64,000 bases of DNA from Scenedesmus sp. PABB004. Lineage: Eukaryota. The translations under genes were made by a program, and so were the position numbers. The first letter of the stretch is position 1; each line of letters begins with the position of its first letter. Positions 32,480-38,937 of the stretch are shown one piece after another. The notes under the pieces are model-generated. The model was not told the DNA's origin. It did no database searches and saw only the letters and a program-made list of their open reading frames with translations. Where the stretch lies: assembly GCA_014905635.1 (NCBI GenBank), contig JABVCE010000022.1, forward strand, positions 558,001-622,000, read 5' to 3'.

Positions 32480-35058
32480 CGTGCGCGGGCTTGGCGCCGC
32501 TGTCGCTGCTCGCCGCGGGCGCCTCGCCGCATGGCGCGGCCGCCGCGGGCGCCGCCGCCGCGCCGCCGCCGCTGTCGCTGCCCGCCGCGTCGGCGGACGT
32601 CCCCAGGGAGGGCCGCGCCGCGCCGGCCGCCGCGTCGGCGCCGCCCGCGGCCAGGCGGTTGACGCTCAGTGATGAGCCGAACGAGCCAAATGAGCCGAGC
32701 GCGCCGCGCGCCGCCGGCGCGCGCGCGCCCGCGCCGCCGCTGTGCTGCGCCGCGCCGGCGCTGTCGCTGAGGCTCCGGCTGCTGCCCACCGTGCCCAGGC
32801 CGGCCGCGGGGGGCGAGCCGCCGGCGCGCGGCACCAGCGGGCTGCTGCCCGAGCCAGCCCCGGCTGGCGCCGCGGCGGCGGCCGCCGCGCCGCCGCCGTG
32901 GCCCGCCGTCCAGTCCATGGGCTCGGGCTGGCCGCCGCCGGCGCCGCCCGGCGGCGCCCAGTACTGCGCGGGCGACGCGTGCCAGCCGGGCTGGCAGCAG
33001 GGCCCGGTGCAGTAGCCGGGGGCGGGGCCGTCAAACGGCCCCGGCCCGGCGCCGTACTGCCACGCCCCGCCGGCGTGGCCCCACTCGCCGCCGCGGGCAA
33101 AGGGACCCGGCTGGCCGTAGGGCAGGTGCTGGCTCGGCCCGTAGCTGGGCGGGGCGTAGCCGGCGGGGCCGCAGCTCGGCGGGCCGCACTCGTCGCCGCC
33201 GGCCATGCTGCTGGGCGCGTAGCCCGTGGCGCCCGAGTGGCTGCTGGCGCCGGGGCCGGGCCCGCCCGCGCTGCCCAGGCCCTGCAGCTGCGCCGACCAG
33301 GTGCCGGGCGGTCCCGCGGCGGCCGCGGCGGCCGCGTCCAGCGTGCCGCTGCCCGCCGCGCTGCCGCCAGTCAGCAGCGCGGGGCTGCCGCCGCAGCTGC
33401 TGACCTCGGAGCTGTTCATCGTGCACGAGGGCAGCGCCTGCGCCTCGCCCTTGCACGCGCCGCCGTCCTGCGACGGCGACAGTGACCAGCCGCCGGACCC
33501 CGCGTCGCCGCCGGGCGGCGCCACGCGCAGGCGGCGGTACGCGGCGCCCGCGCCGGCGGCCGCCCGCTGCGCCTGCGCGGGGCGGTTGGGGCTGCACGCG
33601 GTGGCCGCGCCCGCCAGCGCGCTCGGAAGGCCATAGCCGGGCGTGGCCGCCGCGGCCGCCGGGTCCAGCGCCAGCGCGAGCTCCGCGGCGTCGACGCCGC
33701 CAGACGTCGCCACGCACGCGCCGTCGGCCGCCGGCGCGGCGAGCGCCGCGCCGCCGCCGCCCCTGGCCGCCCTGCCCGGCGCCCTGGCCGCCGCGGCAGC
33801 GGCCGCCGCCGCGGCTGCGTCGCTCTCGGTGCTGCTGTCGCTCCAGCGCGGCGCGCGCGCCCTGCTGGCGCGGCGCTTGGTCACCTTGCCGCGCAGCGCG
33901 CCGCCCTTGGACGCGCCGGGCTGCGCGGGGACGGCCGGGCGCGGCGGCGGCGACGGCGGCGGCGGCGCGTGAGCTGGCGCCGCGGCCCGCGCTGCCTGTG
34001 CGTTTTGCGGCAGGGGAGGGCGGCGGGCCCACCTTACTCAGGATGGCGCGGCACGCCTGCTCCTGCGGCGCGCCGTGCTCCGGGTGCGCCAGCAGCCACT
34101 CCAGCGTGGCGCCATCGGACAGGTACCTGCACGGGGGCGGCGGGCGCCGCGCGCGTCGGCCGCTGCCGCGCGCGTGGCGCGGCGGCCGCGGCCCGGCGCG
34201 GCCGCGGCGCGGCGCAGGCTGGCGCGCGCCTGTTTTTGAGGGTGCCGTTCTGGTGCTTGCGGTTGAGCGTGGCGTGCCAGTGGTTCTTGACGGCGTTGTC
34301 GGTCCGCCCGTTGAGCAGGCGCGCGATGGCTGCGGGGAGGGGCGGGGCGGGTGTGCGCGCCGGGCGTGCAGGCAGCACGCCGGCAGCAGCGCCGGCCCCT
34401 GCCAGGCACGCGGCGGCGGCGTGGCGCGAGAGCCCCCGGCATGCGCACCTGCCCAGCGGTTCTGGTGCACCGTCTGCGCCTGCGGGCGGGCGGGCGCGCG
34501 CGCGCGCGGCGCGTGAGCGGCGGCGCCAGGGCTGCGCCAGGCCTGCCAGCTGCTGCCGTCGCCAAATCGCACCTGAACGATGACCGCCTGCTCCCACTCC
34601 GAAAACGGCAGCTTGGAGACCGTCGGGTTGAGCTGGTTGTGCCACCTGCGCGCCGCGATTGCGTGAGGTCGTCGCAAGGATTGGGCAGCCTCTGGCGCCC
34701 AGCCCGCGCCGCCGCGCCCGGCTCCGCGCCACCCATCGATCGCGGGCGCGGCGAATGCATGTCACGCGCCCACGCGCGGCCCGCGGCGTTGCCCACCTGA
34801 GCCGGCAGGACTTGCCCGACCGCCCCGCGATGCCCGCGGCTATGATGGACCAGCTCTGCGTGCCATGCTGCTTCACAAGGGACTGGAGCAGCTCGTCCTC
34901 CTGCGGCGGCGCGCCAGGGTGAGCCGGGGGGCGCAAGTGGGGCTACGCGTCGCGCGAGATGGCCGCCCCGCCGCGCCGCGCCGCACCTCCGGGCTCCACG
35001 CGCCCTTCCTGCTCTCGCCGCACGCGTCCTGCGCAGCCTCGGCGTCGCTGGCGGCCAT
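31193..35058 (-). CDS. R2R3-MYB transcription factor
   Basis: RKGAWSPE|EDELL..SWSIIAAGIAGRSGKSCRLR|WHNQLNP..PFSEWEQAVIVQ|AQTVHQNRWA|AIARLLNGRTDNAVKNHWHATL. The acidic C-terminus ...LDDMASMLAPEDVAADLLCLD* is reached only with apparent frameshifts near 31375 and 31660. Confidence 0.92.
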
Positions 35059-37029
35059 GGCCGCGGCGCCCGCGGGCCGCAGAGCTCGCTGCACCGCCCG
35101 CCTAGCGCGTGGGACGGCGCGGTCTATGCGCGTAGCGTCGCCATCACACGTTCCTAGCGCGATTGGGTGTGGGGGCGGCGCGCGGGAGCACGCGTTTTGC
35201 CGCCAGGCTGGCTGGTTGATGCGACCGGCGCCCGCGACCCACGCCGCGTCGCGGCGTGCCGAGTGCGCCGCCGGGGCGCGACGCGCCGCCGCAGCCTGCT
35301 CCGGCGCCTCCGCGCGGCCGCGGCGGCCGCGCGTCACCGGCGGCGCGACATCACCGCCGCTGAGGCGCGGCCGGCCGGCGGCGGGCGCGGCGGGCGTGGC
35401 GGGCGCGGTGGGCGCGGCGGGCGCGGGGCGGCACACAGCGCTTACCAGCCGCCCGGCGCCAGGGGCGGCGCCCACCCTGGAGCCCTGCCGGTGCCGCGCA
35501 GGGCAGCCGCCGAAAGCGGCGCGCGCGCGCGCGAGCCAGGCGGCCAGCCAGGCCTCAGCTCGCGCTGGCCGGCGGCTGCCACTCCTTGAACGCCGCGCCG
35601 TCCCACTCCCACCACTTGGCGCCGTCCCAGTAGCACCCGCTCGCGGCGTCCCACGCCAGCCCCGACGCGGCGCTGAAGTACATGCCGCGCGCGCCGTCCC
35701 ACGTGTACCCCGGCGGCGCGGCGGCGGTGCCTGGCGCGGGCGCCTCCGCCAGCCGCTTGACCTGCGCGCGCGCGCGCGCGTGGGGCGGGCGAGCGGGGCG
35801 CGAAGCCTCGCCCATGCGCCTCGGCAGCTCTGGCGGCCTGCGGGGGCTGGCTGGGGTCTCTGCTGGCCGGCGGCCCGCGCTGCCAGCGCACCTCGCTGAC
35901 CAGCTCCGCCTTGTCCACCATGCCGGCGCTGTCCACGCCGCGCTCGCGAGGAAGCGGCGCAGCTCCTTGACCGGCCACGCGCCATAGTCAACCGCGGCGG
36001 CAGCTGCGCAGCTGCCGCCGCGGCGCCGGCATGCCGGCGCCGCGCCCATCTCGGCGTCGCTGGCGGCCATGGCCGCGGCGCCCGCGGGCCGCAGAGCTCG
36101 CTGCACCGCCCGCCTAGCGCGTGGGACGGCGCGGTCTATGCGCGTAGCGTCGCCATCACACGTTCCTAGCGCGATTGGGTGTGGGGGCGGCGCGCGGGAG
36201 CACGCGTTTTGCCGCCAGGCTGGCTGGTTGATGCGACCGGCGCCCGCGACCCACGCCGCGAGTCGCGGCGTGCCGAGCGCGCCGCCGGGGCGTGACGCGC
36301 CGCCGCAGCCTGCTCCGGCGCCTCCGCGCGGCCGCGGCGGCCACAGGTCACCGGCGGCGCGACATCACCGCCGCTGAGGCGCGGCCGGCCGGCGGCGGGC
36401 GCGGCGGGCGCGGCGGGCGCGGGGCGGCACACAGCGCTTACCAGCTGCCCGGAGCCAGGGGCGGCGCCCACCCTGGCGCCCTGCCGGTGCCGCGCAGGGC
36501 AGCCGCCGCGGTGCCGCCGCGCGAAAGCGCTTTCGCGCGGCGCGCGCGCGCCCGAGCCAGGCGACCAGCCAGGCCTCAGCTCGCGCTGGCCGGCGGCTGC
36601 CACTCCTTGAACGCCGCGCCGTCCCACGCCCACCACTTGGCGCCGTCCCAGTAGCACCCGCTCGCGGCGTCCCACGCCAGCCCCGACGCGGCGCTGAAGT
36701 ACATGCCGCGCGCGCCGTCCCACGCGTACCCCGGCGGCGCGGCGGCGGTGCCTGGCGCGGGCGCCTCCGCCAGCCGCTTGACCTGCGCGCGCGCGCGCGC
36801 GTGGGGCGGGCGAGCGGGGCGCGAAGCCTCGCCCACGCGCCTCGGCAGCTCTGGCGGCCTGCGGGGGCTGGCTGGGGTCTCTGCTGGCCGGCGGCCCGCG
36901 CTGCCAGCGCACCTCGCTGACCAGCTCCGCCTTGTCCACCATGCCGGCGCTGTCCACGCCGCGCTCGGCGAGGAAGCGGCGCAGCTCCTTGACCGGCCAC
37001 GCGCCGTAGTCAACCGCGGCGGCAGCTGC
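35038..37029. repeat. ~1 kb tandem segmental duplication (copy A 35038-36007, 42-bp filler, copy B 36050-37029)
   Basis: Near-identical sequence starting ctcggcgtcgctggcggccatgg and ending tagtcaaccgcggcggcagctgc in both copies, with scattered substitutions and indels. Confidence 0.95.
35555..36070 (-). CDS. Candidate chimeric ORF: MYB first 7 codons + filler + CD2BP2-like C-terminus (OCRE-like domain)
   Basis: MAASDAE-MGAAPACRRRGGSC-AAAAVDYGAWPVKELRRFLA...VKRLAEAP...GYTWDGARGMYFSAASGLAWDAASGCYWDG...ASAS*; open from the duplicated ATG to the duplicated stop. Confidence 0.5.
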   Translation of the reverse strand: MAASDAEMGAAPACRRRGGSCAAAAAVDYGAWPVKELRRFLASAAWTAPAWWTRRSWSARCAGSAGRRPAETPASPRRPPELPRRMGEASRPARPPHARARAQVKRLAEAPAPGTAAAPPGYTWDGARGMYFSAASGLAWDAASGCYWDGAKWWEWDGAAFKEWQPPASAS

Positions 37030-38937
37030 TGCCGGCTGCGCCGGCGCCGGCGCCGGCGCCGCGCCGGCGTCCGCTTCGCCGGGCGCGGCCGCGGCCGCGG
37101 GCACGCCCGCCGCGCCGGAGACGGCGGGCTGCTCCTGCGCGGAGGGGGGCGGCTTGGCCGGCGGCGGCGCCTCGTCGTCGCTGGCAAACATGTTGCCATC
37201 GCCGCCGTCGTCACCGCCTGGCGCGGGGCGGGAGCGGCTCGGCGCGCGCGCCCCGCGCGCCCCGCGCGCCCCGCGCGCGCCCCGCCCCTGCACCGGCGCC
37301 GGCGCTGCCCGCCAGCCCCGCACCCTGCAGCAGGTCTGTCGCGGGCAGCACCGCCGCCGCCCAGCGCTCGAGCTGCTCGCGCCGGTGGCTGTACACGTCC
37401 AGCTCGCCCCCCGCGCTCAGCAGCAGGTCGGCCAGCTCAGTCAGCCGACCAAAGTCACGCTCCGCGGCCGCGGCGTCGGCGGCGCCGCCGCCGGCTGCGG
37501 CGCCCTTGGCGGCCGCCGCCGCCGCCGCCGCCGCGAGGCGCTGCTTCTCCCGCTTGCCCAGCGCTGCGTGCGGAAGGCGCGTGCAGGGGCGGGTGTGTTG
37601 TCTGGAGATGCAGGCCGCGGAGCCGGGCGCAGCTGCCCAGCTGGCCGGCAGGCCGCGCCCGTTGCTGCCGCCCGCCGCCCGCCGCCCGCCGCCCGCCGCA
37701 CCTTTGCCCGCCGCGGCGCCGCCGGCCGGCCGCCGCGCCGCGCCGAGGCGCCGCAGCCCCGCCGCCACGGTCTCGCCCGGCAGCAGCAGCGCCGCGGCCT
37801 CGCGCTGCGCGCGCGCGACCGCCGCCTCGCCCAGCGCCGGCGCCGCGTCGGCCGCGTCCAGCGCCGCCTGCCGCGCCGCCGCAGCGGCCTTGCCCTTCTC
37901 GCTGGCCTGCTTGGCTGCGCGGCCGCGTGTGCGAGCGCGACGCGAGCGTGAGAGGCGCAGGCGCGCGCCTCTCAACCGCGTGGCTGCCGCGGCCGCGGCC
38001 GGGCGGCGCCGCCGCCGCCCCCATCCCGCGCCGCGCCCGCCGCCGCCGCGGCTCACCCTCCTCGGAGTTGAGCCACGCATCTGCTGCGGCGTCGTCGTCC
38101 GGCGGCGGGACGTAGTTTCCCTGCCGCGGCGCGCAGCGCGGGCGGCGGCCGGCGCGTGAGCGGCGCCGCCGCGCCGCCGCGCCGACGCGCGCGGCCGCCG
38201 CGGAGCTGCGCCGCCGCCGGCGCACCTCCTCGTCGATGTTTCCCTCCTCCCGCTCCGCGGCCATGTTGAAGCCGGTGACCGCGTAGCCGCCGTCGCCCTC
38301 CATCGCCGCGGCGACCGCTTCGCTCACGCCGCGCAGCCGGCCGCGCGCGACGCGCGCGACGGCGCCGCCGCCGCCGCCCTCCTCCTCCTCCTCCTCGCAC
38401 GCCGCGAGGTCGCCCGGGAGGGCCGTCTCGTCGTCGTCGGCGGCTGCGGCGCGCGCGCGGCGCGCGTGGGGCCGCGGCGCCGTGCCACGCGGGGCATGGC
38501 CCGCGCCGCCGCCGACGCCGCCGCGCCGCGCCGCGCCGCGCTGCCGCCGCGCCGCGCCGGGCCGCACCCTGGCCGCGCTTGCGCCGCGCGGCGCGGCGCG
38601 TCGCCGCCATGCCGACGAGGCTCTCCTTGACGGGGCCACCCTCCTCGCGCTCAATCTCAGCCAGCGTCTGGCCCTTGGCCTTGCCGCGCGGCGCGGCGGC
38701 GGGGCCTGGCGGCGCGGGCGGCGGCGGCGGGCGCGGTCGGCGGCGGGCGCGGTCGGCGGCGGCGGCCCCCCGGCAGCGCGCGGCGGCGGCGGCAGTGCTG
38801 CTGCGCGGCGCACCGCCGGCGTCGCCGCCCTTCTTGGCGCGCTTGGCCTGCTGCTCCTCCGCCAGCGCCGCCTGGATCAGGCGCTCCGTCTCATCGTCAC
38901 GCGGGCGCTTGCCCACCTCGGGCAGGGGCAGGGACAT
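36576..38937 (-). CDS. CD2BP2/LIN1 (U5-52K)-like splicing factor with C-terminal OCRE-like domain
   Basis: TGFNMAAEREEGNIDEE|GNYV...DAWL, LLLPGETVAAGLRRLG, FGRLTELADLLL..ELDVYS, NMFASDDE and terminal GYAWDGARGMYFSAASGLAWDAASGCYWD. Confidence 0.85.

Follow-up and report, generated by a model that had tools for sequence, protein, structure and literature searches.

Chimeric genes of tandem-duplication origin arise from a head-to-tail duplication that spans two neighbouring genes on the same strand, by which the 5' end of the downstream gene comes to lie ahead of the 3' end of the upstream one, and both parents are left intact. We describe an arrangement of this kind in Scenedesmus sp. PABB004 (NCBI GenBank assembly GCA_014905635.1), within a 64-kb stretch of DNA (contig JABVCE010000022.1, positions 558,001 to 622,000 of the forward strand; hereafter the window, whose first base is position 1), where a duplicated copy of the upstream region and ATG of an R2R3-MYB gene runs in frame into the tail of the gene upstream of it, a LIN1-like homologue of CD2BP2. 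The LIN1-like parent, the chimeric unit and the R2R3-MYB gene all lie on the minus strand, and both parents are left intact by the duplication. We incline to the reading that the duplication is real and young, and that the chimeric unit, complete as it looks, is already broken in its frame and probably non-functional; judged from the sequence, it is most likely a chimeric duplicate that is neutral and decaying, effectively a pseudogene, rather than a functioning gene for a protein with an OCRE domain. In comparison with the described chimeras of this class, the present one differs in consisting of a 1-kb unit in a green-lineage genome of 79% GC and in being frameshifted and 1.4% diverged.

Three further systems provide points of comparison. 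Animal CD2BP2 (as seen in the human protein) carries a GYF domain at its C-terminal position; the window gene shares with CD2BP2 and with yeast Lin1 (U5 snRNP 52K) a colinear core homology, and has an OCRE domain where the animal proteins have GYF. The OCRE domains of RBM5 and RBM10 (PF17780; 5mf9, 2mxw; Mourao et al. 2016, PMC5127646) are resembled by the window domain in profile matches and, more tentatively, in a predicted six-strand model and the top two fold matches of this model (E 0.21 and 0.78), and the positions of RBM5 Tyr488 and Tyr495 are aromatic in the window copies as well. Unlike them, the window domain ends a CD2BP2/LIN1-like protein and not an RRM/zinc-finger splicing factor, its copy scores just under the Pfam cut-off, and it has M, A and C in place of Tyr470, Tyr479 and Tyr486. 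Lastly, the scars attributed to polymerase theta in two reports (Kamp et al. 2020, PMC7368036; Kent et al. 2016, PMC4912351) share with the present junction a duplication of about 1 kb, a small insertion and snap-back tracts, with the difference that neither enzyme nor pathway can be inferred from the one scar of this window.

The duplicated unit comprises the last two exons of the LIN1-like gene, a 0.5-kb spacer and the first 7 codons of the R2R3-MYB gene, and is present as two head-to-tail copies (copy A, 35038-36049; copy B, 36050-37065), which align over their full length and form the sole direct repeat of at least 150 nt within the 64 kb. As delimited by the alignments, copy B holds the 3' end of the intact parent, its own copy of the spacer and a second MYB start, and copy A holds the junction scar, a truncated SAP/OCRE tail, the other spacer copy and the 21 nt with which the true MYB coding sequence begins. 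The peptide MAASDAE is accordingly encoded twice on the minus strand, at the true MYB start (35038-35058) and at the duplicated one (36050-36070; ATG 36068-36070 plus six codons). An earlier reading of the window from its letters only (the sequence-only reading) had attributed a second MYB upstream region, together with these seven codons, to a tandem duplication, and both the alignments and the peptide mapping agree with it. Over 970 aligned nt (35038-36007 against 36050-37029) the copies differ by 14 substitutions (1.4%) and five insertions or deletions (indels) of 2, 18, 15, 10 and 1 nt. The same reading had spoken of a newborn gene, which stands insofar as the duplication is young in evolutionary terms; the word is a relative one, as the copies do differ at 1.4% of their sites.

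Read from upstream, the chimeric unit is composed of the MYB upstream copy (36071-36575), the seven codons, a part of the penultimate exon that includes a SAP-like motif (35892-36007, minus strand), the 130-nt intron (35762-35891, minus strand), the last exon and a stop. The last exon (35555-35761, minus strand; stop at 35555-35557) encodes an OCRE domain in 68 codons, and its parental counterpart, counted without the stop, lies at 36579-36782. MAASDAE and the junction are joined in frame to the parental SAP/OCRE tail as far as a 1-nt deletion in the penultimate-exon part, where a CC pair of copy B is reduced to a single C in copy A (35945/35946), as had been noticed from the letters and as the alignments bear out. 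This deletion falls inside VDYGAWPVKELRRFLAERGVDS..., the most conserved motif of the tail (80% identical to a homologue, P0004); the same exon part has a synonymous change at 35984. The intron had been given as 130 nt, and this is its length in both copies (35762-35891 and 36783-36912), which also have the same GTGCGC...GCGCAG ends (GT...AG as in the parent) and differ by one substitution (35815).

The consequences of the deletion for the open reading frame (ORF) depend on splicing. The exon part from ATG to donor measures 179 nt, and canonical splicing of the unit as assembled brings the OCRE exon out of frame and misses its stop, so that the ORF expected of a chimeric gene is not intact. 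Retention of the intron from the ATG at 36070, on the other hand, restores the OCRE frame and yields 171 aa ending at the parental stop (35555-35557), in agreement between the earlier claim and our translation; likewise, restoring the missing C and splicing normally gives an in-frame product by simple arithmetic (180 + 204 nt = 60 + 68 codons, a 128-aa SAP/OCRE protein). The conclusion drawn from these two outcomes, that an open product exists either way, is true, but it provides no evidence of coding: among all 171-codon windows in the six frames of the 64 kb, 46,539 of 126,970 (36.7%) are free of stops, which places the observation near chance. The window has a G+C content of 79.1% (N = 0), and stops make up 0.80% of the codons of its six frames; with stop codons this scarce at 79% GC, next to nothing can be learnt from a frame being open. 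Across the window, overlapping frames on both strands hold ORFs of 300-900 aa, and gene calls made by ORF in the Scenedesmus sp. PABB004 genome need further support.

The evidence that carries the reality of the duplication is found in the 42 bp at its junction (36008-36049). These had been described as a filler joining the parts in frame; the joining in frame holds, but the tract is mostly templated and not a random filler. It is made up of 14 parental nt (36033-36046, equal to 37052-37065 and lying inside the supposed filler), of 25 nt (36008-36032) that replace 22 parental nt (37030-37051) and consist of inverted copies of both flanks, and of three bases inserted at the true duplication junction (36047-36049; CAT on the plus strand, ATG on the minus strand), which occur in neither parental flank. 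Within the replacement, the left flank (35992-36007) recurs as its exact reverse complement at 36008-36023, and the right flank (36032-36044) does so at 36019-36031, with an overlap of 5 nt between these inverted copies; the only untemplated bases of the junction are the CAT and a central AT (36031-36032). The reading frame survives both changes, as the insertion adds 3 nt and the replacement a net 3 nt. Two perfect palindromes result from the scar, one of 32 nt (35992-36023) and one of 26 nt (36019-36044), out of only seven of at least 24 nt in the 64 kb. Furthermore, the right-hand breakpoint (37065/37066) is held within a (GCGCCG)5.5 hexamer repeat (37038-37069), and 7 nt of microhomology available at the two breakpoints went unused. 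We interpret the 42-bp tract as a templated repair scar, and our chief reason for considering the duplication real is that an assembler would not create an inverted scar templated by its own flanks.

The following sequence of events would account for this structure. A break in the structure-prone GC hexamer repeat within the penultimate exon of the LIN1-like gene may have been mended by an error-prone, template-switching end joining or by replication restart, in the course of which the repair would have re-copied a segment that starts in the penultimate exon, takes in the spacer and reaches codon 7 of the downstream MYB gene. What the sequence shows at the junction is a third unit, comprising the MYB upstream copy with its ATG, joined in frame to the SAP-like/OCRE tail, and the duplicated stop with its 3' flank. 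Snap-back inverted and templated insertions are given as hallmarks of polymerase-theta end joining, a pathway that is also reported to give rise, in brc-1 worms, to tandem duplications between 1 kb and 1 Mb in size (PMC7368036, PMC4912351). Since replication template switching would leave similar marks, one scar cannot separate the two pathways. Any elements that drive MYB from within about 0.5 kb of its ATG would also precede the chimera, which would retain the whole ancestral upstream context; as these MYB upstream elements are duplicated ahead of it, a junction transcript seems plausible. With the frames as they stand, the OCRE domain would be carried only by a minor, intron-retaining RNA.

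In order to characterise the tail, the last exon was used as query in a full HMMER search of 1.84 billion representatives, which returned 25 proteins at E<=1e-3, of which not one reached E<=1e-10. Nineteen of the 25 homologues were aligned together with the two window copies; P0004, P0012, P0020 and P0021 were left out as long or as intron read-through, and P0008 and P0025 as unrelated WDG-repeat proteins. The resulting family profile matched, in the PDB, the OCRE domains of RBM5 (5mf9_A, E 4.2e-11) and RBM10 (2mxw_A, E 1.8e-10), the next, unrelated match being at 0.11, and all 21 aligned members matched the Pfam OCRE family (PF17780) at E<=0.01 (best 2.7e-19; P0004, 51.8 bits), by which the proposed OCRE-like nature of the tail of the CD2BP2/LIN1-like gene was corroborated. 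The window copies themselves remain below the Pfam cut-off of 24.7 bits (parent exon 23.0 bits; 171-aa ORF 21.0 bits, E 3.3e-4). The positions of RBM5 Tyr470, 479, 486, 488 and 495 (HMMER alignment, RBM5 residues 449-508) are occupied by M, A, C, W and W in both window copies, and it is because M, A and C replace the RBM5 tyrosines that the score is sub-threshold; an aromatic residue at the Tyr470 and Tyr479 positions is kept by most of the 19 aligned homologues. These three substitutions predate the duplication. In PMC5127646, the RBM5 OCRE domain is reported to bind the tails of SmN/B/B', its five tyrosines to contact an SmN peptide, and the changes Y479A and Y486A to weaken binding. With M, A and C at three of the five contact tyrosines, an RBM5-like binding of Sm proteins is thus uncertain, even for the parent.

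Between the two OCRE exons there are two non-synonymous differences (35704, T in copy A and A in copy B; 35607, E in copy A and A in copy B), whose ancestral state could not be polarised by the homologues, as both positions vary freely among them. Twenty of the HMMER matches are short (68-137 aa). Many of these open close to where the last exon begins or at 'EKAELV', a motif of the exon before it, and they are therefore read as probable fragments. For the 171-aa ORF, no similar protein of 94-300 aa was found in a collection of 5.8 billion proteins, and none at 301-2000 aa, the latter being a weak null from crowding, as a profile search later found seven long relatives. When the OCRE-exon protein was compared with metagenome contigs, 304 pattern matches gave no relatives by tblastn, and a 30-mer spanning the junction had no matches in these contigs.

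The LIN1-like parent (36576-38937, minus strand; ATG 38935-38937, stop 36576-36578) is an intact green-lineage homologue of CD2BP2, in which the CD2BP2 core is followed by a SAP-like motif, encoded by the penultimate exon, and by a C-terminal OCRE domain, encoded by the last one. Two of its exon pieces have human CD2BP2 as their sole PDB match, in colinear order (E 0.016, residues 49-103; E 0.12, residues 140-184), and by exon-wise blastp seven of eight exon pieces match, again colinearly, a 563-aa protein of Volvox africanus (P0030, source name OCRE domain-containing protein), the eighth being 68% identical to P0004. A 413-aa homologue with a C-terminal OCRE domain (P0021) matches human CD2BP2 at E 9.4e-16 (residues 63-255). 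In the profile search for longer proteins, seven of 7,999 scored candidates were recovered at E<=1e-5, all seven of which carry PF17780, and the source name of one is 'LIN1-like protein isoform X1' (Carex littledalei). The identification of the upstream gene as CD2BP2/LIN1-like, which had been made from the letters, is upheld by the colinear matches to human CD2BP2, by P0021 and P0030, and by this source name. The parental SAP-like motif scores 18.8 bits in Pfam (E 0.0013), under the cut-off of 23.9, and no GYF domain was matched at E<=0.1 in six minus-strand open-frame translations that cover most of the gene in three frames.

A CD2BP2/LIN1-like core with an OCRE tail is the usual architecture of the green lineage. 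Across the homologues of this lineage we observed the OCRE domain at the C-terminus, preceded in the algae by the SAP-like motif (36576-38937, P0021, P0027, P0030, P0031). OCRE and GYF domains are both reported, in PMC5127646, to bind the proline-rich tails of SmB. Full-text literature searches, judged mostly from their listings, returned no paper describing a GYF-to-OCRE swap in CD2BP2/LIN1.

Several observations weigh against regarding the chimeric unit as a decaying, non-functional duplicate. The OCRE exon of copy A has neither an indel nor an internal stop, and its two amino-acid differences from copy B concern sites at which the 19 aligned homologues vary as well. With the alignment as input, AlphaFold2 predicts six strands for this exon (mean pLDDT 76.5), and the top two Foldseek matches of the model are the OCRE domains of RBM5 (probability 0.92, TM 0.55/0.58, but E 0.21) and RBM10 (probability 0.84, TM 0.59/0.45, but E 0.78). 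If the missing base (CC to C) is an error of assembly, the 128-aa SAP/OCRE ORF is intact. Moreover, in Drosophila yakuba, 24 of 76 tandem-duplication chimeras had raised expression of the duplicated segment (PMC5460883), from which expression of such units would appear to be common. These points favour a working chimeric gene, transcribed from the duplicated MYB upstream region into a small predicted OCRE protein (171 aa if the intron is retained; 128 aa, comprising the SAP-like motif and OCRE, should the absent C be such an error) that would bind proline-rich partners such as Sm tails and, as the sequence-only reading had supposed, might compete for spliceosomal partners. Such a gene would have inherited a full set of parts by duplication (upstream region, ATG with 211 nt of identical context, splice sites, stop and 3' flank), a fusion in frame, an OCRE exon that is unbroken and folds in silico, and a tail that is a conserved module of green algae and plants, to which the binding of SmN/B/B' tails by the RBM5 domain (PMC5127646) and the frequent expression of Drosophila chimeras of like origin (PMC5460883) may be added. 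Nevertheless, we regard it as fairly unlikely: the assembled copy has its frameshift in a conserved motif, unspliced RNA would be needed to read the OCRE domain, an open frame is expected by chance in about 37% of cases, both window scores (23.0 and 21.0 bits) are under the Pfam cut-off of 24.7, M, A and C stand at the positions of RBM5 Tyr470, Tyr479 and Tyr486, and the 5.8 billion proteins hold none of 94-300 aa resembling the ORF. The more specific proposal of a gene near its birth, in which the MYB upstream copy drives a junction transcript for a small SAP/OCRE protein that is freed of the U5-snRNP core of the parent and has come under regulation of the MYB type, appears to us quite improbable.

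A different objection is that the genome holds a single copy, the other having come from the mis-joining of an allele or from a chimeric read. A difference of 1.4% plus indels is also a level found between alleles, and the junction 30-mer is without a match in metagenome contigs; against this, N is absent from the window, the junction has, in place of a clean overlap join, three bases foreign to its flanks next to an inverted tract templated by them, the 7-nt microhomology was not used, and the copies are different enough for long reads to distinguish, all of which makes an artefact decidedly unlikely. The unit might also matter through an effect on MYB, as a second upstream promoter giving rise to read-through RNA, with an N-terminally extended MYB or interference with the proximal promoter as the outcome. 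For this speaks the canonically spliced frame from 36070, which stays open for 355 codons (34873-36070, minus strand), past the tail stop and through spacer copy A, and enters the MYB ATG at 35058 in frame with MAASDAE. At 0.8% stops per codon, however, chance alone would leave about 300 codons open in the one required frame out of three a few percent of the time, and the model demands that 3'-end formation fail within spacer copy A; we hold the 355-codon run to be probably a by-product of scarce stop codons and the regulatory effect to be very improbable. The reading of a genuine duplication whose chimeric copy has already begun to decay is thus the one that we retain, at the strength stated at the outset.

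The distribution of differences along the copies is uneven. The 211 nt beside the MYB start are 100% identical (36050-36260 and 35038-35248), and the 254-nt half of the spacer nearest the LIN1-like stop holds eight of the 14 substitutions and three of the five indels; by a rough calculation (19 events over about 1 kb), the identity beside the ATG is no significant evidence of constraint. Spacer copy B (36071-36575, minus strand; aligned to 35059-35554) contains the 3' flank of the parent and the second MYB upstream region ahead of the chimeric ORF, and its ATG-proximal part, up to 36260, is identical to spacer copy A (35059-35554, minus strand), the upstream region of the true MYB gene. The 18-nt indel is due to a 9-nt repeat array that differs by two units between the copies (6.8 units in copy A, 35364-35426, versus 4.8 in copy B, 36378-36422), and a 28-nt perfect palindrome of spacer copy B (36515-36542) sits on the indels of 10 and 15 nt. 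The differences that remain beyond the scar are of ordinary mutation types, namely a repeat-unit change, palindrome-associated indels and 14 scattered substitutions. We also observed that three of the seven perfect palindromes of at least 24 nt in the window fall on copy differences (36515-36542 and the two at the junction), which hints at recurrent template-switch mutation.

The 5' part of the R2R3-MYB gene (34256-35058, minus strand; ATG 35056-35058) was delimited by peptide mapping and has its R2R3 repeats spread over several short exons; the Pfam family Myb_DNA-binding matches at E 1.4e-18 in two stretches that correspond to the two Myb repeats. At the opposite end of the locus, about 430 nt from the ATG of the LIN1-like gene, a plus-strand ORF starting MAKRERDES... 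begins at about 39366 and may represent a divergently transcribed neighbour. The usual poly(A) signal of green algae, TGTAA, occurs three times in the 64 kb (2.87 expected by chance) and was not found in either spacer (35059-35554 and 36071-36575), so the 3' ends cannot be predicted from it. A scan for bacterial promoters and terminators, of a type that does not apply to a eukaryotic locus, gave no sites.

The event itself is of an ordinary kind, as tandem-duplication chimeras are well documented and the present copy looks damaged. Should the duplication be confirmed by reads, it would nonetheless constitute a cleanly resolved case in which, in a genome of the green lineage, a 1-kb duplication of a gene boundary has built a hybrid transcription unit with all its parts, with a repair scar legible at base resolution, and it would make it possible to test directly if such units are expressed and how fast they decay. 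For this genome, the methodological lesson is that the openness of a frame is close to uninformative at 79% GC. The biological counterpart of this scarcity of stops is that frameshifts and retained introns do not truncate, and chimeras arising in such a genome could therefore tolerate early damage unusually well.

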